A stretch of 64,000 nucleotides of DNA, from IMG/VR virus record IMGVR_UViG_3300016478_000199. The stretch is one strand, 5' to 3'. This document shows, piece after piece, positions 19,701 to 61,458 of the stretch. The notes under the pieces were generated by a model. It was not told the DNA's origin, searched no databases, and saw nothing but the letters and a program-made list of their open reading frames with translations. Both the position numbers and the translations under genes were made by a program. This DNA is from an uncultured virus (IMG/VR IMGVR_UViG_3300016478_000199) (taxonomy: Duplodnaviria; Heunggongvirae; Uroviricota; Caudoviricetes). Position 1 is the stretch's first letter. Each line of letters begins with the position of its first letter.

Positions 19701-19739
19701 GTGCCTTGGCCTGCGTTACGTCGCGGCCACCCTCGTTTT
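19701..19739. repeat. Repeat copy A downstream of tailspike
   Basis: gtgccttggcctgcgttacgtcgcggccaccctcgtttt; 37/39 identical to 23891-23929. Confidence 0.9.
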
Positions 19740-19759: not shown

Positions 19760-21571
19760 TTAAGACCCCGTCATCGTCCGCTGCGGCACCCATGTCCCTG
19801 GCGTCCCCGCTACGGTACAAACCCAACCCTGTACGATAAACTGGCTCCCTGCTGTACCTAGGACTGCGGGCAGTCGGTTTTCGACCCGATCCCCGACATT
19901 GTGAGTACCGGTCGTGGGTTGATCCCCGAAACCCCGTAGCTTCCCGTTGGCCATAGTAGGCATAAGCGAGGCGGCAAAAGAGCGGGTGCTACCAGATGGC
20001 CCGAGCACAAGACCAAGGCCCGAATTACCGCTAATTGATATGCCACTGAAGTTGTTAACGTCAAGGCGCACTGCGTTATTACCGCCAACTGTTGTCAGTC
20101 CTACGACATGCCCCTTGGAGTCTGTAGGCAGTATCTGCACCAAGTTTAAGGTGGCGGGGGTAATGTTTGTAGACACCCGGACATTGCTGACCTGCGGAGA
20201 CGCGCCTGTAAGCACCAGGGCTTCGTACCCTGTTGATTCATCTGCAACGACTACTCCATCCAGCGTTGGGCGGTCTGCACCATCAACTCCAGACACCCCG
20301 CCGTAAAATCCACCAACCATATAGGTATCTGGTGAACCTCTAAAGGTAGCCCGTTTTTCGGCGCGGCAGCGGATAAATTGAGGACGGGTAACTTTCTCCG
20401 CGTTGATCTCCGCCGCATAGGCGTTCCCGCTGGCACTACAGTCCTCAAAAAGCACGTCAGCACTCAGAGACACGTCAGGCAATTCTGTCGCCGTGTCATA
20501 CGTTGTGGCGGTTATACCTGACCTCGCGTTGCCTACGCCGCGACAGCGTATGAAGCGACCACGAGTAGTATTGACAAGAGCTAGGCCGTCCCCCGTCCCC
20601 GTGCCGGCAGGGCTTGGGTTAGCACCACAACTATACCCAACGCAATCCTCAAAGGTAATATCTGTGTATGTCAATGCTAACGCCACCGACCTATTCCCCA
20701 GGCCGTGTCCATAAGTGCGGGTTGCTGTGCAACGCCTTGCGATAGAGTAGCTGTCGAGCGCAATACCTAGTTCGCGTATGCTAGAGCCAGCAACGCCAGC
20801 CCCATTACGACCATCTACATGCAAATCCTCAATGATCGAGTGCATTCCGGCAGATACCAACGGTTCAGGTAACTGCGCTTGGCGTTCGATTAGCGCATTA
20901 TTCCCCCGGATGACTGCATAGGCAGGTGCGGCAAAGCGGGTCGCTCTGTATGTTGCGCGAGGGTGCATCTGTACTACCGCGCATTGAGTCATTGCCTCGG
21001 CCAGTGCCGTAAATTGTCGTGAGCTGTTGCCCGGCGCTGGGATAGCCCCCGCCATCTCAGGGGACAGTACCGTAACACCCACACGGACGAAGCATCCCTC
21101 TCCAGCAGTGGAAGCCGAAAACCACTCCGCAACGTCAGAATCAACGCCCCAGTCTACAGGGAATGGGCGGCCCGGATCAAAAACCAAAACACCCTCATGG
21201 GTGGCCTTTGGGCGGGACGCCTCCCACTGGAACAACCCGCCGCCGAGCCCAGTGCCAGCGTGGTATGATTTAACCAGAAATAGGGCGTCATTCTTAGGGA
21301 GTTGTTCCAGTAGCTGCGCGATGCTTGGAACAACTGTTACTGCACGGCCAATCAGCGCCGCCCCCTTCGCCGGGTCTGTAGAGTTCGCAAGATCCCCTGC
21401 AAGCGGCGCAAACGCCTGCTTAAACCGCTTCGCCAGCGTCGGCTGATCAACGAACCCGGGCACCGGGATGTCCGTGTTCTCGTCGCCGGTCAGGATGCCG
21501 AAAGCGGCGTCCTTGGCATCTTCAAACTGGGAGACAGCGGCTTCGATCCGCTGGTTGTACTCGTCGGTCAT
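19760..21571 (-). CDS. Tailspike/depolymerase-like protein 2
   Basis: N-terminus shared with tailspike 1 (DLANSTDPAKGA); Gly/Asn-rich beta-helix-like body; C-terminal GWVCTVAGTPGTW. Confidence 0.8.
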   Translation of the reverse strand: MTDEYNQRIEAAVSQFEDAKDAAFGILTGDENTDIPVPGFVDQPTLAKRFKQAFAPLAGDLANSTDPAKGAALIGRAVTVVPSIAQLLEQLPKNDALFLVKSYHAGTGLGGGLFQWEASRPKATHEGVLVFDPGRPFPVDWGVDSDVAEWFSASTAGEGCFVRVGVTVLSPEMAGAIPAPGNSSRQFTALAEAMTQCAVVQMHPRATYRATRFAAPAYAVIRGNNALIERQAQLPEPLVSAGMHSIIEDLHVDGRNGAGVAGSSIRELGIALDSYSIARRCTATRTYGHGLGNRSVALALTYTDITFEDCVGYSCGANPSPAGTGTGDGLALVNTTRGRFIRCRGVGNARSGITATTYDTATELPDVSLSADVLFEDCSASGNAYAAEINAEKVTRPQFIRCRAEKRATFRGSPDTYMVGGFYGGVSGVDGADRPTLDGVVVADESTGYEALVLTGASPQVSNVRVSTNITPATLNLVQILPTDSKGHVVGLTTVGGNNAVRLDVNNFSGISISGNSGLGLVLGPSGSTRSFAASLMPTMANGKLRGFGDQPTTGTHNVGDRVENRLPAVLGTAGSQFIVQGWVCTVAGTPGTWVPQRTMTGS

Positions 21572-23377: not shown

Positions 23378-23824
23378 TCAGAATTGGATTTTCCACGTGC
23401 CACGGATGCTCAGCTCAGAATCCTTCTCCAGCGCAGCGCCGGTGGCGCGCACCTTGCGGGCGAACAGGGTGCCGTTGTCGGCAAGCAGCCCGAACTCACG
23501 GATGGCCATGCCGTTTGCTTCTTCCTTTGCCAGCGAGAAGAAGAAAACGACGGATGTGTCGGAGGGGTATTCGACCTTGTCGATAGCTTTGACGAAGGCG
23601 CCTGCCAGGGCGCTGTCGCCTGGCGCTGTAGGCGTGCCACTGGTGCCCACAGCAAACTTGGTCACGCTCCAGCCTGAGTCACCGCCCAGCAGGCGTGATT
23701 GGATCTGCTTGGACAGATCGACGACAAGGTTCAGGCCCACTTCCTCGACGCATACGTCGTCGCGGAAAACCTGAATGGACAGGGTTCCGGTCGGCCGGTC
23801 GCGGGCGTGGTCTGTGATGTGCAT
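23378..23824 (-). CDS. Tail fiber anchor/collar-like protein
   Basis: NLVVD, VGT.GT....D.AL, EANG..I.EFGL....LFARK. Confidence 0.75.
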   Translation of the reverse strand: MHITDHARDRPTGTLSIQVFRDDVCVEEVGLNLVVDLSKQIQSRLLGGDSGWSVTKFAVGTSGTPTAPGDSALAGAFVKAIDKVEYPSDTSVVFFFSLAKEEANGMAIREFGLLADNGTLFARKVRATGAALEKDSELSIRGTWKIQF

Positions 23825-23890
23825 CGTGTGGGCTACCCTCGTTTTGGTAGAGGGTAGCGTCACGACGATGGGGGCTGATTGTGGATGTTT

Positions 23891-23929
23891 GTGCCTGGGC
23901 CTGCGCTACGTCGCGGCCACCCTCGTTTT
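23891..23929. repeat. Repeat copy B downstream of tailspike
   Basis: gtgcctgggcctgcgctacgtcgcggccaccctcgtttt. Confidence 0.9.
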
Positions 23930-24098: not shown

Positions 24099-25928
24099 TC
24101 AACGATAATTGATTTTAAGTTTGAATGTCCCAGATGTAGCAGTCGTGCCGGTTGTGCTGAAAGACAGGCGACTGCTTGTGCGCAGTGCTGCAACACTAAT
24201 CGGCACTGTGGATTTCCCGCGAACAGGGGACAGCGCGGAAAGATCAACGCTCGCATGCTCTGCTATGTTGGCACTATTGCCGATTCGCAGCGTTCCTGAA
24301 AGCGTGCCGGTCGCCTCTATGATTTCGATGGACTCAATAATCCCGCCGAATCCGCCAGTCGTGACAAGCTCTGTTTCAGAGATATTTGACGCTGTTTGAA
24401 TTGGGCCTGCGATGATTGACTTCCGATTGCCAATGACTTCATAGCCTTCAACGTCAATGACGTTACGCTCGCGTGGGATAAAGTTAAGGGTTGTTGGCGT
24501 GCCCGAGAACTGCCCGGAAGTCTTGTAAAGACCTGCACCGATATTTGTTACGCACAGATTACTAATGCTAAAGTCCTCCATGCTTTGCGTTGCGGCAGCG
24601 GTGCTAAGACGGTAGAGATTGAATAGGTACTCCGTGGGGTGCAAGTCAACTACAAGACCTTTAATGTACCCGCCCTTCAAGCGGCCAAGCAGTATTGCCC
24701 AATCTCGGTTGGGGATTACGCTGGTTGAAGAGTTGCTTATATACCCACCATCCATAGTGAAGCCTTGGACGGAGTATTGTGCTCCGACACTTAAAGGTGC
24801 TTCACACTGCTCCCACTGCATATTTGAAAGCCGAATTGCATTGCAGCTGCCGCCGAGTAGTGCGTCAGGGTTTGCGCCGAATTGCAGGCCCAGCTTGGTG
24901 GACTCCATGACCCAGCTGTCGAAGTGCAAGGCATAAGACCTGCTAACATCAGCTACGCCACCGCTAGAGCCGCCTGACGCTTGAATGCCGGCGAACACAC
25001 CAGCATTCACGTTATCGACTAGCTGCATGCACCAAGAGCCTGCGCCGCTGGAGTTAAGGCGGCAATCTGCCATATACGGACGAACCGATAGCTCTGCGTA
25101 AACAGCGCGTCCACCAGATGACTCTAGCCGGCTGTGCACAACGCTCCAATCCGGGGAGTTCTTAATATACAGCGCATCCCCGCCTGTGTTTTTTAAGAAC
25201 ACTCCGCGCAATGCGTTTCGGCGGTCGGTTATATTTGAATCATTACCGAATCGAACGATTGGCAAGGCCATGTCCGCAATGATGCCCGGATAGTTCTTGC
25301 CAGGGCCATGAATCTCCTGAGTATTTACGAGCTGGATAGTGTCTTCCACATGCCAACCATCAGGATGATATGGGTATGTGATATTTTGCCCTTCGGCCGC
25401 GGCCCTCAAAAATGCCTCGGTGGTAGCTGACGCACCAGCGGCGCCCGGCACTGCTCCCGCGTCCGCAATATCCACGGTCTTTTTCCGTCGCTTCCAGCGG
25501 CCAGTGTGAATAGCTGGAGCCTGAAAGATATTGATCAGGTCTTCATCTTCTTCGCTTGTCGCATCCCAATATAATGAGCCGCCGCCTTGTTCTTGCCCAC
25601 CATTGTAGCTGCGCACTTCAAATTGCTTGTCTTCTTCTTGAGGCTGTAGGAGAAGATCAGCAATACTATCAACCGCCACAACCCCGCGCCCAACCAACCC
25701 CGCCCCCTTCGCCGGGTCTGTAGAGTTGGCAAGGTCGGCACGAGTGGTCGCGTCAGCCACAACGTCAAACGCCTGTTTAAACCGCTTCGCCAGGCTCGGT
25801 TGCGCTGGGTAGCCGGTAACTGGAACGTCGCTGTTCTCGTCGGCAGTCAGGATGCCGAAGGCGCTGCCCTTGGCGTCTTGAAGCTCAGCGACTACGGCCT
25901 GCAGCTCGCTGTACGCATCGGTGCTCAT
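24099..25928 (-). CDS. Tailspike/depolymerase-like protein 1
   Basis: Start MSTDAYSELQ; shared N-terminal anchor; GGG.LYWD, ADAGAV pectate-lyase-like entry; visibly lower-GC body. Confidence 0.8.
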   Translation of the reverse strand: MSTDAYSELQAVVAELQDAKGSAFGILTADENSDVPVTGYPAQPSLAKRFKQAFDVVADATTRADLANSTDPAKGAGLVGRGVVAVDSIADLLLQPQEEDKQFEVRSYNGGQEQGGGSLYWDATSEEDEDLINIFQAPAIHTGRWKRRKKTVDIADAGAVPGAAGASATTEAFLRAAAEGQNITYPYHPDGWHVEDTIQLVNTQEIHGPGKNYPGIIADMALPIVRFGNDSNITDRRNALRGVFLKNTGGDALYIKNSPDWSVVHSRLESSGGRAVYAELSVRPYMADCRLNSSGAGSWCMQLVDNVNAGVFAGIQASGGSSGGVADVSRSYALHFDSWVMESTKLGLQFGANPDALLGGSCNAIRLSNMQWEQCEAPLSVGAQYSVQGFTMDGGYISNSSTSVIPNRDWAILLGRLKGGYIKGLVVDLHPTEYLFNLYRLSTAAATQSMEDFSISNLCVTNIGAGLYKTSGQFSGTPTTLNFIPRERNVIDVEGYEVIGNRKSIIAGPIQTASNISETELVTTGGFGGIIESIEIIEATGTLSGTLRIGNSANIAEHASVDLSALSPVRGKSTVPISVAALRTSSRLSFSTTGTTATSGTFKLKINYR

Positions 25929-46266: not shown

Positions 46267-49200
46267 TTATAGCGAAAGCTCGCCATTTTGGGCAGCCTTG
46301 CGACGGGCGCTTATTGCACCAGCAACGCCGGTATCGTCCAGGCCATCCATCGGGTCGGCCATCATGTTCTTCAGGTCATACTTGTTGGTAAGCCGCTGCC
46401 GTGCCCGCGCTTCTTCCGGGTGGTCGCCGACCAGATCAATCAGCTCGATGCCGTTCTTCTGCCCAATGCGGTCGATCCGCGCGTTGCGCTGGCTGTGCGT
46501 CTTGGCCGTCTGGCTGACATCATGCTGGATCAGGTATTGCCCCGATTGCAGGTTCATGCCCACGGCGCCGGCATCAGAGGCAATCAGGATGTCCGCCTGG
46601 GCCTCGCCGCTTTCCGGGTTGAACATCCGGCGCTTCTTGTCCTTATCTGTCGCGCTGTCGCTTCCGGTGATGGTTACCACCCGCTTGCCGGCCTTCTCCA
46701 GGGCAGCCTTGTACTGTTCGATACTTTCCCGGTTGCGGGCAAAGATCACCCCTTGCTTGCCCTCACGCTGCTTCACCAGCTCGATGGCGTGCGCCACCTT
46801 GGCATTGTCCGGGTGCGTGTTGATGATCCGGTTGATGGCTGAAGACTTCAGGATGCCAATCGACTTCTGCAGGGCAGCCGCCACCTTCTCGTGATCTGCT
46901 TCCGGCACGCCCTCGAACGAACCAGGCGAGATCGCCTTGCAAGCCTCGATGTCGACCTTTCCGGCGCGACGCGCCAGGCGGGCATTGGCCAGATTCTTGC
47001 TCAGCTCTGCCAGGGCCTGTTGCTGGCCAGAAGACAGCGGCACGGTCTCCACCTTGCGGTCGCGCTGCACGTCCGGCGTGATGCTGGTCGGGAACATATA
47101 ACGGGCCATCTCACGCTTCAGCGCATCCTTGCTGGCGATGGTGTCAGCGCCGTACCGACGCATGAACTCAGCGCGGTCGGCGTAGCGCTCGGGATCCATT
47201 TTCTGCAGCATGGAATGGATCTCGCTGGGATCGTTCTTTATCGGGTCACCCGACGCATATACGTGGTACGGCGTGTTGTGGCCTACGGCCTCGATGACGT
47301 TGGACAGGCTGGAGTTTTCCTTACCTGCTCGGTTCAGGGTGTCGTGCGCCTCGTCAACGAAACTGGCGTCGAAGTTGATGCCCTCCTTGGCCATCACGTC
47401 GGCAGCCCAAGCCTTGCGCTCTGCCGTTGTCATCTGGGCCAGCTTCTGTGTCATCTGGGACTCGTGGATGCCCGCCTGCTCGGCGCCCAGGTGAATCATG
47501 TCGTCGCGGAAAGACTGGTGCGTCATGACGCAAATGTGGTTATCCGGGTCTTTGTACGCAGCGATCCGCTCAGCCTGGCTGGCGCCCGGCTGAATGTGTG
47601 TCTTGAATTTGCCGGCTTCCAGCAGGCGCAGAGCCTCGCCGTTGAACTGGCCTTGAACAATGCTCGGCACCAACATGATCGAGCGCTTGACCTTGCCCAA
47701 GCCAGCAAGGTGAGCATGGGCGCCAAGCATCATGTTGGTCTTGCCAGAGCCTGCACCGGCGGCCAGCACGACGCGCTTGTTGGCGGCGATCAACTTGATC
47801 GAACGCTGCTGGGCAACGTACTTACCGGACATCGACACGTTCCACAGCTTGGTTGGCTGGCCCGGTTTGAAGTTCTGACCTACGACGCCCATCATGCCGG
47901 CGATCTGGCGCTCAGCTGCGTGACCAAGGCTGTGACGCTCGTCACCAGCCAGCGCTGCAGGCTCTCCCCCAGCCTGTGCCGCCGGGGCTTCCTCGGTAGA
48001 GAAGAACCCCATCTGCGCCTGTTCGAAGGCCGCCTGTTGCTCCTTCGCCTGGGTGATCTTGTCGGAGACGCTGCCGGATGCGTACTTGCCATCCACGCGA
48101 TTGCGCAGGCTATCGACCAGCGCCTTGTCCTTCTCCATCCGAGCAGCGCGCGCAGCAGGGTCTACCGCGTCGAGGTGGTTCAGGTTGTTGCGGATGATTG
48201 CCCGGCCCAGCTTTAACGGTTTGTCCGGGTTCAGCCTGTTGTGTGCGTCAACGAAGGTCTTGGCCACCTTCGAGCGGATCATGTCTTGCACGGCTTCATA
48301 GGCCTTGGCGTTTCCGCCCATGGAAGCCACATACTTGCCCCAGGTCAGTGAGCCGCTATTCAGCTTCTCTGCCAGGTTGTCGCGGTGCGCGCGCCAGTCC
48401 TTCCATTCGGGATTGGCAACGGTGTCGCCAAACATGTCGGTGGTCTCTTTTTCCGGCTCTGCCTTCTCGTGCGCTTCGAGGTCAGCGCGCAGTTGCGCCA
48501 CCTCGGGAGATTCCTTGGCGACGTTGCGGTGAAAGAACTCACGCAAGGCACGCTGATCCTTGTGCCCCAGCTCGCCAATCTGCTTGTAGGCTGCCACGCC
48601 TTCCGGTGTATCCGACAGGGCGCGATGCAGTGCGTCGACAGCTTTCTGGTCGACGGTGAATTTCTGGCGGTTCACCGTAGTGATGTCGCCGCCCATCTTG
48701 CCGACGTAGGCGTCAGCGTATTTATCGAAGCTCTCAGCCAGGGCCTCGGCGCGCTGCTGCTTGCCATTGGCATCCTTGAGCGGTGCAACTTGATCGAGGG
48801 CTTCCCGGTATTCCTTCGCACGATCAGGCCCGACCTTTTGGAAGAAGTCAGCCGACTGGATGTCAGCCAGGATGTCAGCCGCGTGGTCGCCGTCCGCAGC
48901 CCGGCCGCCGATGTAGTCGCGCAAGGACTCGGCCAGGTCTTCGCCAGGGTTGAACGGCTTCGCCAGCTGGGGTGCGACGCCGGGCTTCACGTCCATTACA
49001 AGATCAGGGCGATTAGCCACGCCTAACGGAAGCCAACCATCCTCGTCGTGGTCGCCACGAATGATCGACAGGTTGCGACGAACCTGCTGAATGTCTTCAC
49101 GCGCGACCGGCTTGGCCAGGCGATCCATGCCGCTGGCATGCACAGTCAGAAACGTGTCGCCGGCCACGCGCTCCAGGGTGTAGTCGCCCGGCATCAGGCC

Positions 49201-50808
49201 GATGGCGCGAACCTGCTTGATTGCCTGCTCAGGCCCGGTCTTGCCCAGGGATACCTGCAGGCTATCCTGTTTGCCCTGCTTCAGCGCAACGACAAGAGCC
49301 GCGTTGGCCTCCATTTCTCCAAGCGCTTGTCCGAGGATTCGCTGCGCGTCTCCAATCGCCGCCCGACGCCGGGCATTGAGTTCCTGCGCCACGGCCAGAT
49401 CCGCACCATTCTGCGCTTCCTCGGAAAGTTCAATGGCTTTCGCCGCCTCGGTCAGATCGCGGGCTTTCTTCAGCGCCTCGGTCGACGTTTGCATGTAGTG
49501 GTTGACGTGCCAGTCCTGCATGCCGTCGGCCACGTGTTGAACATCGTCCGGCTGCAGATCGCTGTGCACCCGGCGAGCAAGCACCTGAGCGGCACCAGCT
49601 ATGCCGAGGACGTCAACAACAGATCGATCAACTAGCGCCTCGCCGCCCACGGCCAGGGCCAGGGAGTTGATGCTGTTATAAGCACCCACGCCGATATGGC
49701 CGCCAAGAGTTTCTTCCGGCTTGCCGCCTGCAATCTTGCCTACCTCGGACAGAAAGGCGACGGTCTGTGCTGTACGCAGGTCATTTGCAACCGCTTCACG
49801 TGCCTGGGCGTCAAGGTCTGCATCGCCGGTGGCCTCGATGACAAAGGCTTTCGGCTCGGTAGGCGACTTGTCGATGTCGGCTGCTGCAGCTCTGGCCTGT
49901 TTCTCGATCTCAGCCAGCCGCTTCCCTTCCTTGACCAGATCAAGCGCATCCTTGGCGCTAAGCAGGGTAGCGTCGGCGTTCGGCGCTGCAGGCTCCTTGA
50001 TCCCTTCCAGTTCTTGCTTGATCAGCGCAGCGGCCTGGCCTCGTGCAAAGGCGGCTTGCTTCTGCTCTGGCGTCATCTCGGCCAGCTTGCCCTGCTTGAC
50101 CTGCTGGGCCTCCATGGAAAGCTGCTCTTCGGTCAGCCCACTGGCCTCAGCCCGGCCTTTGTAGTCGGGATTGAAGCCCAAGCCGCTGACCTGCTTTGGT
50201 ACTGGCGCAAGGTCTTGCACAGAAAGCGCTCCGGGTTCCTCGCTGAATAGCGGAACCTCACCAACACCCGCGTCTGCGCGCGCAGCGGCATCGTTGACCA
50301 GCTTTTCCCGGCTCTGCTGAATTACTTCCTTGGCGCGGCTCAGCAGCTTGGCATGGTGGCGCTCCTTAACCTTGGCAAAAGCCTTTTCGGACAGGTGCGC
50401 GTAGTCTTCCTCGGGGAACTCAAGCTCCTTTTCATCCCAGCCGGCCTTCTTGGCCACAGCCTGAATGACTTCCCGCTCAGCCTGGCGCTTCTGTTCTTTC
50501 AGAGCCTTGCGCGCCTCCTGCTTGGCGCCATGGATGCCGGCCGCTTTGTCAGCCTGAGTCTGGGCTTTTTTCTGCTGCCGACGCTCTGCCGCCTTGGACT
50601 CGGCCTCGGCCTTGTATTCGGCCTTGGACTTAACGCCTCGCAGGCGCAGATGGTTGAGACTGCCTCCCGCGCCGCCAATAACCTTTGCTGATCCGTCAGC
50701 TTGCGGCTGGATCAGCACGGGCTGGCCCTTGCCGGTACCGTTCGGGTGAACAGTGATCCAATGGCTTCCAGGCGGTATAGATTTGGCAAGCAGGACAAGT
50801 CTTTTCAT
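46267..50808 (-). CDS. Large SF2/SNF2-like helicase, probable internal head protein
   Basis: AGAGSGKT, VDEAH, ASGDP, SDAGAVGMNLQ, QRNARIDRIGQ; located among head genes with late promoter. Confidence 0.85.
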   Translation of the reverse strand: MKRLVLLAKSIPPGSHWITVHPNGTGKGQPVLIQPQADGSAKVIGGAGGSLNHLRLRGVKSKAEYKAEAESKAAERRQQKKAQTQADKAAGIHGAKQEARKALKEQKRQAEREVIQAVAKKAGWDEKELEFPEEDYAHLSEKAFAKVKERHHAKLLSRAKEVIQQSREKLVNDAAARADAGVGEVPLFSEEPGALSVQDLAPVPKQVSGLGFNPDYKGRAEASGLTEEQLSMEAQQVKQGKLAEMTPEQKQAAFARGQAAALIKQELEGIKEPAAPNADATLLSAKDALDLVKEGKRLAEIEKQARAAAADIDKSPTEPKAFVIEATGDADLDAQAREAVANDLRTAQTVAFLSEVGKIAGGKPEETLGGHIGVGAYNSINSLALAVGGEALVDRSVVDVLGIAGAAQVLARRVHSDLQPDDVQHVADGMQDWHVNHYMQTSTEALKKARDLTEAAKAIELSEEAQNGADLAVAQELNARRRAAIGDAQRILGQALGEMEANAALVVALKQGKQDSLQVSLGKTGPEQAIKQVRAIGLMPGDYTLERVAGDTFLTVHASGMDRLAKPVAREDIQQVRRNLSIIRGDHDEDGWLPLGVANRPDLVMDVKPGVAPQLAKPFNPGEDLAESLRDYIGGRAADGDHAADILADIQSADFFQKVGPDRAKEYREALDQVAPLKDANGKQQRAEALAESFDKYADAYVGKMGGDITTVNRQKFTVDQKAVDALHRALSDTPEGVAAYKQIGELGHKDQRALREFFHRNVAKESPEVAQLRADLEAHEKAEPEKETTDMFGDTVANPEWKDWRAHRDNLAEKLNSGSLTWGKYVASMGGNAKAYEAVQDMIRSKVAKTFVDAHNRLNPDKPLKLGRAIIRNNLNHLDAVDPAARAARMEKDKALVDSLRNRVDGKYASGSVSDKITQAKEQQAAFEQAQMGFFSTEEAPAAQAGGEPAALAGDERHSLGHAAERQIAGMMGVVGQNFKPGQPTKLWNVSMSGKYVAQQRSIKLIAANKRVVLAAGAGSGKTNMMLGAHAHLAGLGKVKRSIMLVPSIVQGQFNGEALRLLEAGKFKTHIQPGASQAERIAAYKDPDNHICVMTHQSFRDDMIHLGAEQAGIHESQMTQKLAQMTTAERKAWAADVMAKEGINFDASFVDEAHDTLNRAGKENSSLSNVIEAVGHNTPYHVYASGDPIKNDPSEIHSMLQKMDPERYADRAEFMRRYGADTIASKDALKREMARYMFPTSITPDVQRDRKVETVPLSSGQQQALAELSKNLANARLARRAGKVDIEACKAISPGSFEGVPEADHEKVAAALQKSIGILKSSAINRIINTHPDNAKVAHAIELVKQREGKQGVIFARNRESIEQYKAALEKAGKRVVTITGSDSATDKDKKRRMFNPESGEAQADILIASDAGAVGMNLQSGQYLIQHDVSQTAKTHSQRNARIDRIGQKNGIELIDLVGDHPEEARARQRLTNKYDLKNMMADPMDGLDDTGVAGAISARRKAAQNGELSL

Positions 50809-52572: not shown

Positions 52573-54288
52573 TCACAGTTCCACCCGCCACACGGGGAGG
52601 CCAAAGCTCTTTTGCATGTCCTCGCCATTGTCTTCGGCAGGCTCTTCATCCTGCTCGCCAGGCTGCTGACCTTGCTCTTCGCCTTCAGGCTGGCCTGGCT
52701 GATCCTGCTGCCCCGGCTGACCGCCGAACTGGCCGCCAGGCGCGTCCGGGTTGCCGTAGTCTTCACCTTGGCCCTGCTTGCTCTGCATGTAGGCGCCCAT
52801 CAGGTTCTGGTTGAGCGGTGCGTCGCCCCAGTCCTCTTCGATCTCATCCCAGCCACGCGCTTTGCGAGCCTCGTTGACCTTGCACAGTGCCTGCTCTTCA
52901 ATCCAGGCCTGTTCCGGCGTCATCTCGTCGAGGCCAGTCCAGCGGAAAACGTATTTATCGCTGAAGCCGGAAACAATGTAGTCGCTGAACAGGTCTTCGA
53001 AGTGCGAAAGCAGCGGGCGCAGACCCTTGTCCTTCGAGTTGATCAGCTTTTCTTCAGTGTCACTGCCAGACAGCGAGCTGGTGCCGGCGGTGAAGCTCTC
53101 AAAGTTGATCTCGTCCGGGGCGATGCCGTAGATCGCGCAGATGATCGAGGTCAGGAACGTCATCCACTTGGCGAACATGATCTCGTCGACGTCGACGCCG
53201 AACTTCTCAAATGCCGCCTTCGACTCGCTGTTCTTGGATACCATCACCGGCAGCGACCAGGCATTGTTGATGCCCTTGACCATGGCGTTCCAGTAACGCT
53301 TGAAAGCATTCAGATCCTGTTCGGCATAGTCGCCAGACAGGTGCAGAAGTCCTTTCGGTATCGAGTTGCTGTCAAAATACTTCAGGTTGTAGGTCATGGC
53401 GTTGAGGAAGCCGGTGACCACCTTCACCAGCAGTTCGACCTCGCTCATGCCGTAACCGCCGACCATGACGTCGGTGCGTGGGTTGCGCGGGACGTAGATC
53501 AGATCGTCGTAGGTGTAGGCTGCGCGGATGTTCCCCTGAACCACCTGCAGGGCGTACAGCTCGTCATCGCCACGGTATCCCTCTTCGCTGCATAGACGGA
53601 TGGTTGCGCCGTCCACCGCGTAGAAGCCGTCAAGGCCAAGGCGTCGGTCACGCTTCCACTCGGTCTCGATAGGCGAGCTGTCCAGGGTCAGGCTGTCGCG
53701 CACCATCTTGGCCATGAAGCCAGAGAAGTTATCGCGCTTCAGTCGCATGCGCTGGCGCGGGTCTGACTCCCAGCCGCAGTTGGTGAAGAAGCCTTCCAAC
53801 AGCTGGATTGACTGCTGTTCGCTCTTGCCCAGCTTGGCGGCTGGATCACGCGGCTTGATGGCAAAGCCAGGCCCTTTGCCCGATTCCTGTACCCGGCAGA
53901 AACGCTTGATCTGGCGCTGGCGGGTCATGATCACGGCAGACAGGATTGGCACCTGATCGACCATCATCCGCAGCATGTCGAAATTGAACGCACCAGGGCG
54001 CTCGTAGTATTCACCGAGAAGCTGAATGCGCCGATCATCGAGATAGACCGACTGCATGCCCGGGGTGCCGTTCTTGATCGCCATGCTTGGGTACGGGATC
54101 GCGTTCGGCTTGGTCAGCGCCTTGGTCAGTTCTTGCTCTTCATACTGACGCTGCATGAACTCCACGAATGGCAGCATATCCGCCACCGTAGACGGCAAAG
54201 CATCCTGCTGAGCAACACGCATGGCGTCGCGCTGCTCGTCGGCAGGCGCTGCAGGGTTATGGGCAACTTCGATGGCTTTATCGGTCAT
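52573..54288 (-). CDS. Portal protein
   Basis: RDSLTLD, VDGATIR, GYG.SE.E, YF...SIPKGLL, ICAIYGI.P.EI, GLRPLL, VNEARK..G. Confidence 0.92.
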   Translation of the reverse strand: MTDKAIEVAHNPAAPADEQRDAMRVAQQDALPSTVADMLPFVEFMQRQYEEQELTKALTKPNAIPYPSMAIKNGTPGMQSVYLDDRRIQLLGEYYERPGAFNFDMLRMMVDQVPILSAVIMTRQRQIKRFCRVQESGKGPGFAIKPRDPAAKLGKSEQQSIQLLEGFFTNCGWESDPRQRMRLKRDNFSGFMAKMVRDSLTLDSSPIETEWKRDRRLGLDGFYAVDGATIRLCSEEGYRGDDELYALQVVQGNIRAAYTYDDLIYVPRNPRTDVMVGGYGMSEVELLVKVVTGFLNAMTYNLKYFDSNSIPKGLLHLSGDYAEQDLNAFKRYWNAMVKGINNAWSLPVMVSKNSESKAAFEKFGVDVDEIMFAKWMTFLTSIICAIYGIAPDEINFESFTAGTSSLSGSDTEEKLINSKDKGLRPLLSHFEDLFSDYIVSGFSDKYVFRWTGLDEMTPEQAWIEEQALCKVNEARKARGWDEIEEDWGDAPLNQNLMGAYMQSKQGQGEDYGNPDAPGGQFGGQPGQQDQPGQPEGEEQGQQPGEQDEEPAEDNGEDMQKSFGLPVWRVEL

Positions 54289-54384
54289 ATTGGGGAGCCT
54301 AGCGTCACGACATATTTTGCGGCTGGCGCTTGTATTGAATAAGCATTTTTGATTACCATCGCCGCCGGCATGAGGTTACACTAA

Positions 54385-54633
54385 ATGCTCAACAAGACAC
54401 AGAAACTATTGCGAAAGCCTTGGCCTGAACTCTCCAAGAGAAAGACAAGTGAAGGCATAGAGAAATTCTGTCCGCGCTGCTGCGAATGGTGGCCGCACGA
54501 CGACGAGTTCTTCACCTTTATTCAGTCCAGAGGCCACTATCACAGCCACTGCAACGCCTGCAGAGCAGAGTCCAGCAGGATCAGGCGCAAAAAAAATCAG
54601 ACCGAGGGTAAGCCCCTCATGGAGACAGCGTGA
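54385..54633 (+). CDS. Small zinc-finger protein
   Basis: KFCPRCCEW...FF...SHCNACR; preceded by TTGTAT-N18-TACCAT. Confidence 0.7.
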   Translation: MLNKTQKLLRKPWPELSKRKTSEGIEKFCPRCCEWWPHDDEFFTFIQSRGHYHSHCNACRAESSRIRRKKNQTEGKPLMETA

Positions 54634-55097
54634 AAAAGACCCCACTTTATATCAAGAAGCTGCACACCGACGCAAAGCTGCCTAAGTACGCTACGCCGGG
54701 CGCCGCATGCTTCGATCTGAACGCCATTGTGGAAGGCAACGGCATGATGAACAGCAACGAAAAGCTGGTCACTCCTTACCAGCCTGTTTCGTTCCGTACC
54801 GGCCTGGCGTTCGAAGTGCCAGAAGGCTACGCCATGTTGGTGTTCAGCCGCAGCGGGCACGGCTTCAATAATGGTGTTCGGCTGTCCAACTGCGTCGGCG
54901 TTATCGACAGCGATTACCGTGGCGAAGTGCTCGTGAAGCTCCACTGCGACGCCGAAGGCCAGGGCGTGCTTGTCAAGCACGGCGACCGCATCGCCCAGGC
55001 AGGCTTGGTGAAGATGGAGCAGGTCGAGATGTTTTTGACCGACGAACTGAGCGAGACTCAGCGCGGCGAAGGCGGCTTCGGGCACACTGGCCAGTAG
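54630..55097 (+). CDS. dut: Trimeric dUTPase
   Basis: AACFDL, SRSG, GVIDSDYRGE, GDRIAQ, RGEGGFGHTG (motifs I-V). Confidence 0.97.
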   Translation: MKKTPLYIKKLHTDAKLPKYATPGAACFDLNAIVEGNGMMNSNEKLVTPYQPVSFRTGLAFEVPEGYAMLVFSRSGHGFNNGVRLSNCVGVIDSDYRGEVLVKLHCDAEGQGVLVKHGDRIAQAGLVKMEQVEMFLTDELSETQRGEGGFGHTGQ

Positions 55098-55127
55098 TTG
55101 CATTATTCATTTTCAATGCGTTAGAAT
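55098..55127 (+). promoter_or_regulatory. Sigma70-like promoter of the ncRNA cluster
   Basis: TTGCAT-N18-TAGAAT. Confidence 0.7.
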
Positions 55128-55487
55128 TTGGTTGTACCGCCCATGGCCACCTGGCCAGCGTAAGGGCCGCCGGATGCGGTAACCGGCCTGATCACCTGCT
55201 TTGCGTTGGGAGAACCTGGCGGGCAGGCTGTATCGGAGTGGTGATTGACTCAGCGCACAGCCGGCATTCTGCCGGGACAGTCACCACTACCGATGCAGAG
55301 CGGTGTGGAAAGCAGACACACAGCGCAATGTCGCTCCGAGCGTACCTGAACAACCGGAGGCGTGGTTTTCGCGTGGTGACGCGCGAAGTAAATAAAATCG
55401 GCGGATCAAGCGGCTCCACGACCGCCCGCAGGGAGTAAGGCTTTGACGGCCTAAGAGGATAGGCGGAGTTGCGACCGGCCTCTGCAC

Positions 55488-55784
55488 AAGAATTGCTGTA
55501 ACCCCCCTAACGGGGAAACGTGGCGGACGGGGGTTCGATTCCCCCCAGCTCCACCAAAAGCGCTTTGTGGCAAGCCGACCTCGGTGCACCGGGTAAGCGG
55601 CAAAGCGCTCCTGATGGGGCTGATCAGGATTCGACGCCGCGCGTAGTCGGATGGGGCAGCACGAGAGGCGACCGACGTAATCGGCGCAAAAGCGATAAAT
55701 GCCAATGACGAAAGTTACGGCCTGCGTCTTGTAGCCTAACCGCTACTGATGCCGGGTTCGCCCCACCTGGGAACAGAACGGGGC
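55488..55784 (+). ncRNA. ssrA: Circularly permuted (two-piece) tmRNA
   Basis: T-arm and CAGCTCC-A-CCA (ends 55556) precede the 5' end GGGGCTG..GGATTCGAC (55616); G3:U70; tag ORF 55701-55739 ANDESYGLRLVA*; outer ends approximate. Confidence 0.9.
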
Positions 55785-56675
55785 TTCGATTTCAGGATTC
55801 CTGTCGTTGGGAACTGACAGCCGGGAAAGACCGGCGAGACACGCTCCCGTGAGTCGTCAGATCGGGCAACAGCCGTAGAGCCTGGTCGCATTAAGTTGCG
55901 GCGGGTCGGCGGGGATAACGCCAAATAAGCGCCCCTGACAACAGCAAATGCTGCAAGCCGGTGGAAGGCCGGCACCATCACCCCGAAAGGGGCTGTATGG
56001 GACAGCGAGCGAAACAGCGTGGGAAAGGGCTGATCAACTGGCGGGGAATGGCTGGTGCCGCATGGGCGAGCAAACCACACCCAAGCCAGATGCCGGGTTC
56101 GACACCACACGCTTGGCGCTGTACGGGGGACGCCCTGGATTCGCTCGCTGTCCCATGCAGGCGAGTAAGGGAAACGGACGATGGGATAGGGGTCGCGCCC
56201 CGGTGTACCTAGAGCCGTGACTGGCGGAAAGCCTGCAGCCGTCGAGCAGCTGGGACTGCGCATACCGCGCAGCAGAGAGCCTGCACTGGTGCCTGATTAG
56301 CTATCAGGCCGCGCCCACTGCGAAAGTGTGGGTTGTATGGGAGAGTGATCTACCGGGTTCGATCCCCGGAGGTCGGGAAACGGGTAACGGGCCGTCCTGG
56401 CCGGAAGTGGCGACGATCACTCCCCCATGCAGGTATCGCGCAAGCTGAAGCGCTACAACTGGCAGGCGGTGCGTAAGTCCGGGGCCAGGGTATGAAAGCC
56501 GCCGGGGATCAGCGCCGGCCCTGCAGCAAATTGCTGGCACCGCCTGTACCAATCATTCTTTGGTCGGAAGCGAAAAAGTCGGGCGGTGCCGGCATCCAAA
56601 TCCCCGACGCCAACCGGGGAACCTCTGGAATGGGGTATCTGCGAAACTTGCCAGAAAGGTGATGGCGACTGGATT

Positions 56676-56704
56676 AAAAGCCCGCTTTTGCGGGCTTTTT
56701 CTTT
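56676..56704 (+). terminator. Intrinsic terminator of the ncRNA cluster
   Basis: AAAAGCCCGC-tttt-GCGGGCTTTTCTTT. Confidence 0.85.
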
Positions 56705-56802
56705 GCTCAACCTGTTGCAATACTCTGTTTTGATCAACTATTATTTGATTAAGCCGCGAAAACGGCTCAACCACCCGACGAATACTTAAGCAGGAAAGGA
56801 AA

Positions 56803-57726
56803 ATGCTCAAACTCATTACCAACGCCATCGTTTACAAGGCCGAACTGCCTTCCGCACAACTGCTCGCCAAGCACCTTGCCGAGTTTCCCTATCACCCTAT
56901 CGCCGATACCGCTTTGTCCCAGGCCAGCTTCGTACCGAACAAGACCAGCAACGAGCTGGTGACCGAGTTCACGGACGGCTTCGCATTTCACCTGCGCTAC
57001 GACGAGAAGATCCTGCCGGCCAGCGTCGTCAAGGCCAAGTCTGACGAGCGCATCGCCAAGTTCGAAGCAGAGCAAGGCGTCCGCCTGAAGAAGGCAGAGC
57101 GCGAAGCGATCCGCGAACAAACTCTGGTCGACCTGGCCAAGACTGCGCTGGTCAAGACCTCGATCATTCCTGCTTTCTACAGCACCAAGGACAACCTGCT
57201 GATCGTGAACACCGGCGGCAAAAAGTTTGCTGACCGGGTAACCTCCTATCTGATCCACGCGGTTGGCAGCGTGAAGACCACCACCATCCACGTCAGCAAT
57301 ATCAAGCACGGCTTGACCACCCGCCTGAAGTCGCACCTGTGGCGCGACGACAATGCCTTCGACGGGTTCGAGGTTGGCGCCAGCGTTGCGCTGAAGAGCG
57401 GCAGCCAAAAAGTCAGCTACAGCCTCGAAGACCTTGAAACGGCTCGCGCAGGCATTCTGGAAGCTATCGACAAGGGCTTCGAAGTTGAGCGCCTGGCCAT
57501 GGTTCACCACGGCGTCGAGTTCAAGCTGACCAGCGACTTTCACTTCAAGGCCGTGCGCTTTGAGGATTCCGAGCGCGAAGACGATGACGAAGTTACCGAC
57601 GCTGTGCACTTCTGGAAGCATGAAGCCGGCGTGCAGGTGCTGCAGTTCTCTGCTGCGCTGAATCAGCTGTGCGATCTGCTGGGCTACAAAGCCGAGGAAG
57701 AGGCCGAGGCCGAGCAGACCGCTTAA
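56803..57726 (+). CDS. rdgC: Recombination-associated protein RdgC
   Basis: N.IVY, FVP, DEKILPASVV, E..QG....K.E...I.E....L...A; promoter TTGCAA-N18-TATTAT at 56715-56744. Confidence 0.85.
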   Translation: MLKLITNAIVYKAELPSAQLLAKHLAEFPYHPIADTALSQASFVPNKTSNELVTEFTDGFAFHLRYDEKILPASVVKAKSDERIAKFEAEQGVRLKKAEREAIREQTLVDLAKTALVKTSIIPAFYSTKDNLLIVNTGGKKFADRVTSYLIHAVGSVKTTTIHVSNIKHGLTTRLKSHLWRDDNAFDGFEVGASVALKSGSQKVSYSLEDLETARAGILEAIDKGFEVERLAMVHHGVEFKLTSDFHFKAVRFEDSEREDDDEVTDAVHFWKHEAGVQVLQFSAALNQLCDLLGYKAEEEAEAEQTA

Positions 57727-58863: not shown

Positions 58864-61458
58864 TCACTCCCGTGCGATAAATGCCCAGCAGCCCGGATCT
58901 GCTGGGCGCACCTTGTAGCCGTTTTCGTTGCACATACCCGTGTCCGGGTCAAAGCTGGCGCAGCAGCGGCAAATCTCTTCCCGCGACACTTCCAACTGCT
59001 CAAGCACCGAAACGATCTCTTCCGGCACCTGAATATCCGTCGGGCTGAGCGGGCGCGTCGGTGCCTGCTGCACCTGTGGCAAGATGAAAGTGCTGGTGCC
59101 ATGGGCGCGTGACCAGGCTACGTCGCAGAGCATGTTGGCGTAGCTGAAGTGCGGGTCGATACCGACCTTCTTAACGCTGCGCTTGTACTGGTTGGTCTCG
59201 TCGTCCTTCTCGGCCACCAGGGCGGTCTTGGTGAAATGGTGGAACACCCTCGGGAGAACCGCCACGACTTGCTTCTGCCCCTTCTCCAGCACCTCCTGCA
59301 CCAAGCCCTGCGGGTCAGGGAACAGGCAGGTAGGAATGTCGGTGGTGAACCGGCTCATGCTCACCTGCATGCACTTGTACTGATCCATGCGCAGGGTGAA
59401 GCGATCCTGCGCCTCTTCATCAGTGCGTCGGTCGGATGCGTTCTGCTTTGGCGTGTCGCCCCAGTGAATCATGCCGTCGGCAACGCTGCCAAAGCTGTTG
59501 CATATAAAGACCTTGCCCGGGTGGCGCTGGGCAAACTTCTTGGCGTCGTTGTAGTTCGGGTTGATCTCGACCACGCAAACCGAAACGCCGTACAGCTCCA
59601 TCAGCTCGCTCGATCTGGCGAACGGGTCGGCGCTGTAGGTTTCCTCGACGTGGATCACGGCCTGGCGTCCATCAGGCAGGCGCTCCTTGATCACGTGCAC
59701 GTTGAAGTTACCCATTTGGTCGATGCCCATAAACGTGCCGCGTGCGCGGGACTTCCAGACGACGCCAGCCTGCCGGCCAGCCTCGACACAGCGCGCCAGG
59801 TGCTCCAGCGACACAGGAACCTGCGACGGGTCGAGATACGGCTTGCCCAGCTTACGGTTGAAGAAGTTCTTCATGTCCGTAGCGGTGTTGTAGGCAAACA
59901 TGATGTCGCCAGGGCTGATCGTCGGCGACAGGAACTGCGGGAAGTGGATCGAGCGGATAGGCGATTCCCCGCGCTCGTTCTCTGGCGCGTCTGCAATCCA
60001 CTCGCCGCGCTGCGGATCATCGATCCAGCCACTGCAGCTGTGGCAAACGTAGCGGTGGATCTCCTGTTCGGCGTCATACCGGATGCAGTCTGGGAAATAC
60101 TCATCCAGCGGCTTGCGCGCCAGGCAGTGCGGGCATTCCGTGTGGAAGCGGAACTGGCTGCCGCGCTTGTACCAGTGGTGGATGTCGGCATCAGGCCAGT
60201 TGGCCGTCGAACCCATCAGGGTGTAGCGGATCGCGGAAGCAGACAGACGCTCACGTGTCTTTTCCATCTGCTCCAGGGTCATTTCCTGCACCTCGTCGAA
60301 GGACAGGATGTCCATCGGAATCGACTCGGTGGTGGCCCGGCCAGACGTCCAGCTGAACACGAACATGGCCTCGCCAATACGGCGGGTTCGCACGTTACCT
60401 TCGCCAACCTTGCGGCCACTGCCATCCGGCGCGTCCATGGTCATCAGCCGGTGTACGTCGGGCACAGTTCGCACGATAGGCATGAAGCGCTCAGATGACT
60501 TCAAGCCGGCCAGGTTCATGTCGGGCAGGAACATACCGACGGTCGCAGGCTGGAACTTCAGTCCAAGGAAAATCACCGCCAGCATCTCCATGACGGTGAA
60601 GCCCACCTGGGCGCACTTCATCAGCACCAGCGTCTTGCGGAATGCGTCATCGACGGTGCTTGGGATCTGGTCATAAATCCACGCCATCGCCGGACGGTCA
60701 TCCAGACGGAACGGGCGACCGTCCACCTTCAGGCCTTCATCACCCAGCCGCACGCACCACTGCCGGAAGGTCTCGTCGCGGCCGATTACGCGCATTGATG
60801 GCGTCAGCTCGATGGCGACATCCAAGAACTCGGCCCCGAACCGCTGCCGGTATTCCGGTTCGGTCGCAGCCAGCATGTCTGCCTGGGTTTCCTCGGGCAG
60901 GTGCGGGTTGCACTCCGAGCTGAACTGCCAGCACGACCAATCCTCATCGAGCAAGCCCTGCTGGAACATGCGGTAGAAGTCGTTCTTCTTGCCATAAGCG
61001 CCAGACAGGAACCATGCCTGGCCCTGCTGCTCGCGGATGCACTCGCTCAGGGTGTCCTCGAAGGCTGACAGGAAGTCCGGCACGTGGCGCACGTCGTCTA
61101 CCACGATCAGTCCGTATTGCGGGAACGCCTTTGGCAGATCGTCGAATGAGTAGAAGTCGATGGCGTTGCCGTTCAGCAACTGCAGGCGCCGTGAGTTCAC
61201 CTGTCGCTTGATGAATGGGTCAATCGCGCGCTTGATGATGCGCTTGACCTCGGTCAGATCATCCTTTTTCGGCGAGAACCAGGCGACAGGCGCCTTGCCG
61301 GAAATTGCGCCGTGACTAGAAGCAATCAGCACCTCGATGCCAAGGGTAGTCTTGCCGCCTTTCTCCCCCATGCACACGGCATTGAAGCGGCTGGCCTTGG
61401 ATAGGATCTTTCGCTGTACGGGGTGCGGCGCCGGGAGGCGTATCTTGAGTTCTGGCAT
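58864..61458 (-). CDS. Terminase large subunit (GpA-like) with an extra N-terminal terminase-like ATPase domain
   Basis: LMKCAQVGFT, LSFDEVQEM, CPHC/CHSC, FFN..LG.PY, MGIDQ nuclease motif. Confidence 0.88.
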   Translation of the reverse strand: MPELKIRLPAPHPVQRKILSKASRFNAVCMGEKGGKTTLGIEVLIASSHGAISGKAPVAWFSPKKDDLTEVKRIIKRAIDPFIKRQVNSRRLQLLNGNAIDFYSFDDLPKAFPQYGLIVVDDVRHVPDFLSAFEDTLSECIREQQGQAWFLSGAYGKKNDFYRMFQQGLLDEDWSCWQFSSECNPHLPEETQADMLAATEPEYRQRFGAEFLDVAIELTPSMRVIGRDETFRQWCVRLGDEGLKVDGRPFRLDDRPAMAWIYDQIPSTVDDAFRKTLVLMKCAQVGFTVMEMLAVIFLGLKFQPATVGMFLPDMNLAGLKSSERFMPIVRTVPDVHRLMTMDAPDGSGRKVGEGNVRTRRIGEAMFVFSWTSGRATTESIPMDILSFDEVQEMTLEQMEKTRERLSASAIRYTLMGSTANWPDADIHHWYKRGSQFRFHTECPHCLARKPLDEYFPDCIRYDAEQEIHRYVCHSCSGWIDDPQRGEWIADAPENERGESPIRSIHFPQFLSPTISPGDIMFAYNTATDMKNFFNRKLGKPYLDPSQVPVSLEHLARCVEAGRQAGVVWKSRARGTFMGIDQMGNFNVHVIKERLPDGRQAVIHVEETYSADPFARSSELMELYGVSVCVVEINPNYNDAKKFAQRHPGKVFICNSFGSVADGMIHWGDTPKQNASDRRTDEEAQDRFTLRMDQYKCMQVSMSRFTTDIPTCLFPDPQGLVQEVLEKGQKQVVAVLPRVFHHFTKTALVAEKDDETNQYKRSVKKVGIDPHFSYANMLCDVAWSRAHGTSTFILPQVQQAPTRPLSPTDIQVPEEIVSVLEQLEVSREEICRCCASFDPDTGMCNENGYKVRPADPGCWAFIARE

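Follow-up and report, generated by a model that had tools for sequence, protein, structure and literature searches.

A two-piece transfer-messenger RNA gene of the betaproteobacterial type carried by an uncultured myophage

Introduction

The original papers on two-piece transfer-messenger RNA (tmRNA) are reportedly those of Keiler (2000) and of Sharkady and Williams (2004), the latter being said to be the founding paper for the betaproteobacterial form. The alphaproteobacterial two-piece tmRNA of Caulobacter is described as the product of a permuted gene, made as one precursor and present as two base-paired RNAs (PMC9004378, PMC11915505). A gene following the same principle is described here, a permuted tmRNA (ssrA) gene located at positions 55464-55830 of a 64,000-nucleotide (nt) stretch of DNA from an uncultured virus (IMG/VR record IMGVR_UViG_3300016478_000199; the whole stretch is referred to below as the window). 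The gene is a further member of a known and catalogued but functionally unstudied class, the phage-borne two-piece tmRNAs of the betaproteobacterial (beta) type. A reading of the window made from its letters alone (the original prediction) had proposed a phage-encoded circularly permuted tmRNA with this tag and structure, and ARAGORN, Rfam and the phage genes around the locus all bear that proposal out.

Phage tmRNAs entered the literature in the standard form, those known at the time of a 2014 survey being described there as all one-piece (PMC4131195). In 2022, Buchholz and colleagues reported 133 unique phage tmRNA structures, 53 of which were two-piece by ARAGORN (PMC9004378), and Table S1 of that paper labels as 'Permuted' the tmRNAs of the Pseudomonas phage SM1, of the Stenotrophomonas phages DLP_6, Mendera, Moby, YB07 and IME-SM1, and of Xanthomonas phage XacN1 (PMC9004378). 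The genome announcement of phage Marzo describes its tmRNA as highly similar to the 'Betaproteobacter-class' SsrA of S. maltophilia (PMC8928761), and the 2025 tmRNA database is stated to hold 79 bacteriophage sequences and introduces the Rfam family RF04321 (PMC11915505). No functional study of a phage two-piece tmRNA was found in literature searches.

Several described systems can be set beside the window gene. The native beta two-piece tmRNA (RF01850; Azoarcus, Methyloversatilis), which is the best-scoring Rfam family for a bacterial lineage among those reported for the window, has the same order of pieces and a single pseudoknot after the tag; in Rhodocyclales, the native two-piece gene is seemingly the sole tmRNA of its bacteria, whereas the probable host of the window phage uses a one-piece tmRNA, the form established for Pseudomonas (PMC9004378). 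A phage two-piece tmRNA mismatched to its host lineage has been reported in Melnitz, a phage of OM43 with a tmRNA of the alpha type, as in pelagimyophages (PMC9004378), but the alpha type is a different lineage from the window gene, whose best reported score is to the beta model. Mycobacteriophages of the Bxz1 group and Bacillus phage G resemble the window in carrying a phage ssrA without a phage smpB (PMC4131195); their tmRNAs, however, are standard and unpermuted, and these are phages of Gram-positive hosts.

Results

Gene call and anatomy

ARAGORN returned a permuted tmRNA as its sole gene in the window, at 55464-55830 on the + strand, with the tag ANDESYGLRLVA and a tag-coding part at gene positions 238-276, corresponding to 55701-55739. 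In Rfam scans, RF04321 (tmRNA_permuted) matched 55494-55739 over the full model length with 131.8 bits (cut-off 47), and RF01850 (beta_tmRNA) matched 55446-55794 over model positions 1-331, also the full model, with 127.2 bits (cut-off 84); these scans reported only top-scoring clan members and left out the scores of the alpha and cyano tmRNA models. Both programs had been named as checks in the original prediction, and every structural element that it listed was found in place when the sequence was read directly. The tmRNA gene is almost certainly genuine.

The two pieces stand in permuted order, with the CCA of the 3' end (55554-55556) upstream of the 5' G (55616) and an intervening segment between them. 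The core of the acceptor piece (55494-55556), delimited by sequence, Rfam alignment and covariation, contains the 5' strands of helices P2c (55494-55498) and P2a (55519-55524), a T-arm (55529-55545) in which GGGGG (55529-55533) and CCCCC (55541-55545) enclose TTCGATT, a T-loop of the GGUUCGAUUCC type, and then the 3' acceptor strand CAGCTCC (55546-55552), the discriminator A (55553) and the encoded CCA. The 5' part of the coding piece (55616-55700), placed by the same three kinds of evidence, opens with the 5' acceptor strand GGGGCTG (55616-55622), which forms a 7-bp stem with CAGCTCC in which G55618:U55550 is the G3:U70 pair, and continues with a D-loop analogue (55623-55635), the 3' strands of P2a (55636-55641) and P2c (55657-55661), a hairpin (55662-55677) and an ATAAAT box (55695-55700). 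This box directly precedes the alanine resume codon GCC (55701-55703), with which the tag frame begins. The frame runs from this codon to a last GCC and a TAA stop (55701-55739), is called by ARAGORN and aligns with 'AUAAAUGCcAAcGA' of both Rfam models (RF04321 and RF01850), and ends in LVA, not LAA.

An H-type pseudoknot follows the tag (55752-55785) and was identified by layout search, folding and the RF01850 alignment. Its stem S1 (CCGGGT 55752-55757/ACCTGG 55765-55770, 6 bp) was found in the minimum free energy (MFE) fold, and its stem S2 (GCCCC 55760-55764/GGGGC 55781-55785, 5 bp) aligns to a hairpin of RF01850. The remaining 3' tail of the coding piece (55786 to a provisional end at 55830) carries small hairpins according to the Rfam alignment and the MFE fold; the MFE fold of the 3' region as a whole (55740-55850) is not distinctive (z = -0.5). 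Rfam scans of the window and of 55050-56850 found no riboswitch attached to the tmRNA, and a permissive scan of the latter interval gave, beyond the tmRNA, sub-threshold matches only, which were treated as chance. An rsmX match of 26.3 bits (cut-off 56, E = 0.02) at 56595-56700, just upstream of the RdgC-like gene described below, is probably also due to chance.

Conservation of the structure in relatives

Relatives were gathered with a motif pattern made up of CCA, a spacer and a tmRNA 5' end, which presupposes the permuted order. IMG/VR scans with spacers of 20-50, 51-81, 82-112 and 113-143 nt gave 34, at least 120, 84 and 19 contigs, respectively, so that at least 257 IMG/VR contigs have the same permuted arrangement. 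The 257 IMG/VR loci were extracted together with those of three isolate phages and the window, and of these 261 sequences 252 were called as permuted tmRNA by ARAGORN. These sequences carry 85 distinct tags, mostly ANDxx[FY]ALAA-like, and the window tag exceeds the commonest tags of the family by two residues.

Helix conservation was assessed on 283 unique rows. Acceptor pair 5 covaries (GC in 151 rows, AT in 71 and CG in 37); acceptor pairs 1-3 are invariant (283/283) solely because the collecting pattern required them. In the T-stem, P2a and P2c, canonical pairs make up 81-96% and include several compensatory types; when the columns are shifted by 1-2 positions, the figure is 21-81%, and for P2a (55519-55524/55636-55641) and P2c (55494-55498/55657-55661) alone the shifted controls reached 21-57%. 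The pseudoknot region was unalignable across the 38-row clade described below, as judged by MAFFT column counts, and an alignment-free layout search was used instead; 81% of 200 unique relatives, compared with 9% of shuffles, have an H-type pseudoknot with at least 11 bp in total directly behind the tag. These sequence comparisons support the view that the helices of the gene are under selection in its relatives.

Lineage of the gene

A FastTree phylogeny was built from 287 unique rows, each comprising the 75 nt ending in CCA and the 150 nt from the 5' end (233 columns kept), and was rooted on four Stenotrophomonas one-piece tmRNAs, named Pseudomonas one-piece tmRNAs not being among the compared sequences. 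The window gene pairs with that of Pseudomonas phage SM1 (support 98), and both lie within a 22-row clade of phage copies and Stenotrophomonas chromosomal copies (support 97). In turn, a 38-row clade (support 99) unites a 23-row phage/Stenotrophomonas group with 15 Rhodocyclales-type rows, which are characterized by short spacers (20-38 nt) and tags of the form ANDER[FY]A[LIV]AA. This nesting argues with moderate strength for common descent with the native Rhodocyclales two-piece genes. The deep backbone of the tree is ladder-like, with supports of 48-67, too low for a direction of transfer to be claimed.

Searches with the gene sequence were also carried out. When the coding piece was compared by BLAST with a sample of 400 genomes from across the GTDB class, the one long match was to the permuted copy of Stenotrophomonas (80% over 100 nt), and the other four matches were of 21-26 nt only. 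The termini that the original prediction had called E. coli-like are universal motifs of the tRNA-like domain, and the gene had no blastn match in 5,426 E. coli genomes (E <= 0.01) or in PLSDB plasmids.

The same permuted form is also found in SM1, in the SM1 relatives PaMx31, FBPa45, UF_RH6 and PA_L9, in DLP_6 and in Xanthomonas phage Rb1. SM1 and PaMx31 belong to the Samunavirus group, siphophages of about 93 kb that infect P. aeruginosa, a member of a genus with one-piece tmRNA. The SM1 gene is the nearest sequence to that of the window (its 70-nt acceptor piece is 92.9% identical and its coding piece 78%) and is like it in gene order, in the P2 helices and in a spacer with a closing stem. 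Its tag, ANDTSFDVRLAA, shares the pattern ANDxx[FY]..RL.A with the window tag but ends in LAA, and its spacer measures 112 nt, against 59 nt in the window. The SM1 genome is otherwise unrelated to the window at the megablast level, and the neighbourhood of its tmRNA differs, the gene lying after dCTP deaminase/PhoH and beside a tRNA-Arg. This tRNA-Arg(TCT), at 3894-3965, is immediately upstream of the permuted tmRNA and is overlapped by a spurious one-piece 'tmRNA' call of ARAGORN, which the table of Buchholz and colleagues has as a second, 'linear' SM1 tmRNA (PMC9004378). The tmRNA site is without an annotated feature in the records of SM1, DLP_6 and Rb1.

The T4-like Stenotrophomonas phages DLP_6, Marzo, Moby, Mendera and IME-SM1 and the Xanthomonas phage Rb1 also fall within the 22-row clade of the window. 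In the DLP_6/Rb1 group, RF04321 scored 136.8 and 103.4 bits, and RF01850 scored 103.7 bits for DLP_6. The hosts of these phages carry standard tmRNA. Unlike that of the window, their tmRNAs sit in tRNA clusters of much larger genomes, and the Stenotrophomonas phage tags ANDDSFAPMAIAA and ANDDIYAPVALAA resemble the host's own standard tag, ANDDNYAPVALAA. On these comparisons, horizontal transfer among phages, rather than fresh permutation of a host gene, would best explain how the gene was obtained.

The intervening spacer

The intervening segment (55557-55615, 59 nt) is predicted to be discarded. Acceptor stem and spacer fold as one long hairpin (MFE -41.5 kcal/mol, z = -4.3, none of 200 shuffles being as stable), with a closing stem at 55559-55568/55600-55609, which agrees with the fold-back of this segment seen in the original prediction. 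Among relatives, spacer length ranges from 20 to about 150 nt, and 83% of 275 unique spacers, compared with 42% of shuffles, are closed at their ends by a stem of 6 bp or more, which is built from unrelated sequences.

Contigs from four public metagenome runs, none of which is recorded as RNA, were placed on 54300-57000. A 731-nt contig (X2) covers 55300-55993 and is almost identical to the window, with differences in the tmRNA area at 55463, 55469 and 55502 only. A 12.7-kb contig (X3) agrees with 55169-55556 except for four differences, each of them upstream of 55464, so that its acceptor piece is identical to that of the window; 73 other letters then replace 55557-55610, and the match restarts at 55611 with the coding piece retained. 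Conservation thus ends at the predicted CCA end and sets in again 5 nt ahead of the predicted 5' end, which is the behaviour expected of a discarded spacer. Indirectly, these comparisons suggest that the spacer is expendable in sequence while its shape is kept, and that it is not part of the mature RNA. A depth spike at 55483-55573 was traced to the conserved tmRNA 3' ends of other organisms. Just downstream of the tmRNA, at 55993-56415, three contigs (X2, X3 and X8) skip or replace about 340-410 bases, marking an indel hot spot that holds only unsupported short open reading frames (ORFs; e.g. 55948-56220) with no Pfam or PHROG match.

The phage and its variable slot

The carrier is best explained as an uncultured myophage of about 93 kb from the Dolphis/Jeremy/PHB04 group. 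Its nearest isolates are the Pseudomonas putida phages Dolphis and Jeremy, with 73-80% nucleotide identity over conserved blocks, and remoter members of the group infect Bordetella, Aeromonas, Escherichia and Enterobacter. The tmRNA lies inside the divergent gap between the portal gene (52573-54288, - strand, PF04860), which forms the left boundary of the variable slot, and a gpA-type large terminase gene (58864-61458, - strand, PF05876), which forms the right boundary of the module. Within this gap it sits between a dUTPase gene shared with Jeremy (54630-55097; phrog_135, 4e-55; PF00692) and a gene for an RdgC-like recombination-associated protein (56803-57726; PF04381, 9.4e-38; phrog_724), both on the + strand like the tmRNA, in a stretch (55001-56773) for which blastn found no counterpart in Dolphis and Jeremy.

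The whole records of Dolphis and Jeremy contain no RF04321 match, and ARAGORN likewise found no permuted tmRNA at their loci. A related portal (57-74% amino-acid identity) was found on 38 IMG/VR contigs, just one of which (L413) has a tmRNA (6696-7096). That gene is permuted, carries the tag ANDSSFLMAANA, is located on the other side of the portal gene beside a tRNA-Met and has only universal motifs in common with the window gene; a different tmRNA at a different site implies at least two separate tmRNA acquisitions in the phage group. In two further relatives, a tRNA-Asn occupies the slot and orientation of the window tmRNA, upstream of and divergent from the portal gene (L396, 6072-6147; L403, 6444-6519), and tRNA-Met, tRNA-Gly or tRNA-Tyr is found near the portal in many others; the window itself is without any tRNA. 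Given its absence from the closest isolates, its presence in one of 38 portal relatives and the tRNA-Asn in the same slot, the tmRNA is an accessory gene of sporadic occurrence, housed in a variable small-RNA slot.

Other phage genes of the window encode a tail sheath, a tail tube initiator, a tail fibre C-terminal domain and an SLT-domain protein, along with a primase zinc finger, helicases, an HU-like protein and a tyrosine integrase. The integrase (14952-16415), whose arm-binding domain is of the P4 type, belongs to the conserved core genes of the myophages Dolphis, Jeremy, Touem01, PHB04 and ST4 (about 90-95 kb) and is unexpected for phages otherwise described as virulent-looking. Beside the portal region, among head-morphogenesis genes, a 1513-aa ORF (46267-50808) carries a C-terminal SNF2/DEAD-type helicase module (residues about 1000-1450), and its N-terminal 1000 residues gave no Pfam match. 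Two ORFs of the tail-fibre region, about 4.3 kb from each other, are connected by direct repeats of 50-133 nt (76-88% identity) at 21345-21541 and 25687-25898, and a 39-nt motif is repeated upstream of these ORFs (19701-19739, 23807-23845 and 23891-23929), which points to fibre modules that are duplicated or exchangeable. Within the replication-gene region, 187 N stand at 11939-12125, either a gap in the assembly or withheld letters.

Permuted copies in bacterial genomes

With a looser pattern, 101 matches were obtained among about 185,000 bacterial and archaeal species genomes, mainly in Rhodocyclales, Gallionellaceae, Oxalobacteraceae, Stenotrophomonas and Mesorhizobium, and a sample of 151 genomes from across the class yielded RF04321 in two, of which one was the Stenotrophomonas centre itself. 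A standard tmRNA over the cut-off was found in none of three Rhodocyclales genomes, all of them metagenome-assembled, and the permuted gene seems to be native in this order.

All five Stenotrophomonas genomes tested (L283, L285, L294, L296 and L313) carry a standard tmRNA (189-192 bits) together with a permuted beta-type copy (137-141 bits), and the permuted copies have divergent tags, e.g. ANADYYDQSEQDTLLAA and ANESVYDQPQERELLVA. A prophage origin of the Stenotrophomonas copies was considered and rejected, since in two of these genomes the Pfam-annotated neighbours of the extra copy within 10 kb (LysR, MBL-fold, TonB receptor) were ordinary chromosomal genes and no phage genes were identified among them. 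A standard tmRNA beside a permuted copy was also found in all five Oxalobacteraceae genomes tested (Herbaspirillum, Noviherbaspirillum and Duganella; L297, L301, L303, L326 and L271) and in one of two Gallionellaceae genomes (L272). The Oxalobacteraceae copies fall within a 108-row clade that includes 88 IMG/VR rows; across the large clades, viral rows account for 88 of 108, 55 of 55, 7 of 7, 9 of 38 and 3 of 18. One Herbaspirillum tag, ANEPQFVAYGT, is not degron-like.

Discussion

The reading we favour, and hold to be likely, is that the window carries an intact accessory permuted ssrA gene of the beta type, in a myophage of the Dolphis/Jeremy/PHB04 group with a Pseudomonas host, and that the gene contributes to ribosome rescue along the following lines. 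The gene would be transcribed together with the + strand module dUTPase - tmRNA - RdgC, and the precursor would fold with the spacer hairpin stacked on the acceptor stem. Host RNase P would cut at the 5' G (55616) and host 3' processing would trim back to the encoded CCA (55556), with loss of the 59-nt spacer, leaving two RNAs held together by the acceptor stem (7 bp), P2a (6 bp) and P2c (5 bp). The RNA would be charged by host alanyl-tRNA synthetase (AlaRS) via G3:U70 and delivered by host SmpB and EF-Tu to ribosomes stalled on broken mRNAs, where translation would resume at GCC 55701 and add ANDESYGLRLVA, a ClpXP-type degron. The benefit would be more capacity for ribosome rescue at a time when host mRNA is being broken down by the phage and translation is driven hard. 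By analogy with described tmRNAs, the gene most likely acts during infection, together with host SmpB and AlaRS, in the rescue of stalled ribosomes.

Positions of the E. coli tag that are important for recognition by the adaptor and by ClpX are kept in the window tag, namely the N-terminal ANDxxY and the C-terminal L-V-A. In E. coli at 37°C, the half-life of LacI-LVA is reported as about 13 min, compared with about 8 min for LacI-LAA (PMC3511798). LVA-tagged LacI being still short-lived, the window tag is probably still a degron, perhaps a slightly weaker one. The idea in the original prediction that LVA would retune degradation is right as to the ending of the tag, but as a claim it is weak, LVA remaining a strong degron by these LacI half-lives. 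Its companion suggestion, that the tmRNA could supply cleavage-resistant rescue, stands as a conjecture.

Several points count against the favoured reading. The gene is known here from DNA alone, with its transcription and the ends at 55556 and 55616 being predicted. As the original prediction had noted, the window shows no smpB: none of 77 ORFs of the 64-kb window, from a genome perhaps about 30 kb longer, had an SmpB family match in Pfam, and host SmpB is therefore assumed. Neither a sigma-70-like promoter nor an intrinsic terminator was found in 55100-56300 (0 sites each), from which we infer co-transcription with the + strand module followed by processing. The gene differs from RF01850 in that the terminal 3' hairpin of the model (308-328) is deleted in the window alignment and in that the TATAAT of the promoter-like TTGA..TATAAT upstream is unmatched; both are peripheral elements, and their absence would be compatible with a phage variant of the lineage. 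Two candidate pairings, the middle of helix 2 (CCCC/GGGG, 55502-55505/55653-55656) and an alternative local hairpin (55504-55507/55512-55515), performed no better than shifted controls and were rejected. The tree is built on a short alignment, uses FastTree local supports and contains members collected by a pattern that requires permutation. The host is probably a Pseudomonas, as judged solely from relatives at 73-80% nucleotide identity, and the absence of the gene from Dolphis and Jeremy indicates that the tmRNA is dispensable.

Other explanations of the locus have to be weighed against this reading. The original prediction raised the possibility of an independent and recent permutation, in this phage, of a host-like one-piece tmRNA of the Pseudomonas or E. 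coli type, and such an origin would suit both the resemblance of the termini to one-piece tmRNAs and the one-piece tmRNA of the likely host genus (PMC9004378). It is hard to reconcile with the full-length match to the beta two-piece model, with a break point, P2 helices and pseudoknot common to at least 257 viral contigs and several isolate phages, or with a position as sister to SM1, nested beside the native Rhodocyclales genes. The closest relatives are, moreover, all permuted, and no long match to a one-piece tmRNA was seen in the 400 class genomes or in E. coli, so that this origin appears very improbable and the suggestion was dropped. The integrase, with its Arm-DNA-bind_3 domain, points to a different history, in which the copy was gained as this P4-type enzyme (14952-16415) integrated at a host ssrA and has persisted as a passenger or attachment-site relic with no role of its own; tmRNA genes are described as common integration sites (PMC11915505), and the gene is sporadic in the phage group. 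However, the integrase is a conserved core gene of relatives without a tmRNA and is located 40 kb from it, the window holds no second copy of the tmRNA 3' end (up to 3 mismatches), and direct repeats around the gene are unremarkable. The gene is also complete and not a 3' fragment, covariation is seen in its helices, and in close relatives both pieces persist while the spacer has been exchanged, all of which makes a relic improbable.

The main rival concerns function rather than origin, and proposes that the RNA acts mainly as a decoy or inhibitor that titrates host SmpB or blocks host trans-translation, or else redirects tagging to an altered fate, adding no rescue capacity. A precedent is the tmRNA of mycobacteriophage DS6A, which consists of the tRNA-like domain only and is discussed as a tmRNA inhibitor (PMC4131195, PMC11915505), and a decoy would also accord with a tag that ends in LVA instead of LAA and is longer by two residues than the commonest of the family, and with the lack of a phage SmpB among the ORFs scanned. 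A pure decoy would have no need of the complete tag frame, resume context and pseudoknot that are kept here and across the family, and the LVA ending is still quickly degraded (PMC3511798). A decoy or inhibitor role is accordingly considered unlikely, and ribosome rescue by an intact accessory tmRNA is retained as the preferred reading.

For the biology of these phages, the window provides a clean example of a two-piece tmRNA in a phage whose probable host has a one-piece tmRNA, together with natural evidence for an expendable spacer. Phage tmRNA genes are routinely left unannotated, as in SM1, DLP_6 and Rb1, and RF04321 or ARAGORN -m is worth running on phage genomes. The example raises the question of why phages of one-piece hosts carry the two-piece form, and whether they move it into chromosomes.

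The data would allow a wider reading, that the beta-type two-piece tmRNA is primarily a phage-adapted mobile gene family rather than a trait of a bacterial lineage. It is allowed by the numbers collected (at least 257 viral contigs, against 101 of about 185,000 bacterial and archaeal species genomes under a looser pattern), by the presence of the gene in phages of one-piece hosts (Pseudomonas, Stenotrophomonas and Xanthomonas), by the stand-alone second chromosomal copies beside a standard tmRNA in Stenotrophomonas, Oxalobacteraceae and one Gallionellaceae genome, and by the drift of phage tags towards the host's own tag. We put it forward tentatively, as a speculation that the odds do not favour. 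If it were true, phages would carry the two-piece form from one bacterial class to another, and the ancestor of the 'native' two-piece tmRNA of Rhodocyclales could be a phage copy that took the place of the original gene. Phages would then be the setting in which a split architecture is favoured, one possible reason being that the spacer offers a tolerant site for recombination or processing. The family-level pattern, in which the gene is mostly phage-borne, mismatched to host topology and found as second chromosomal copies, is allowed by the data rather than established by them, and is a more interesting lead than the single gene.

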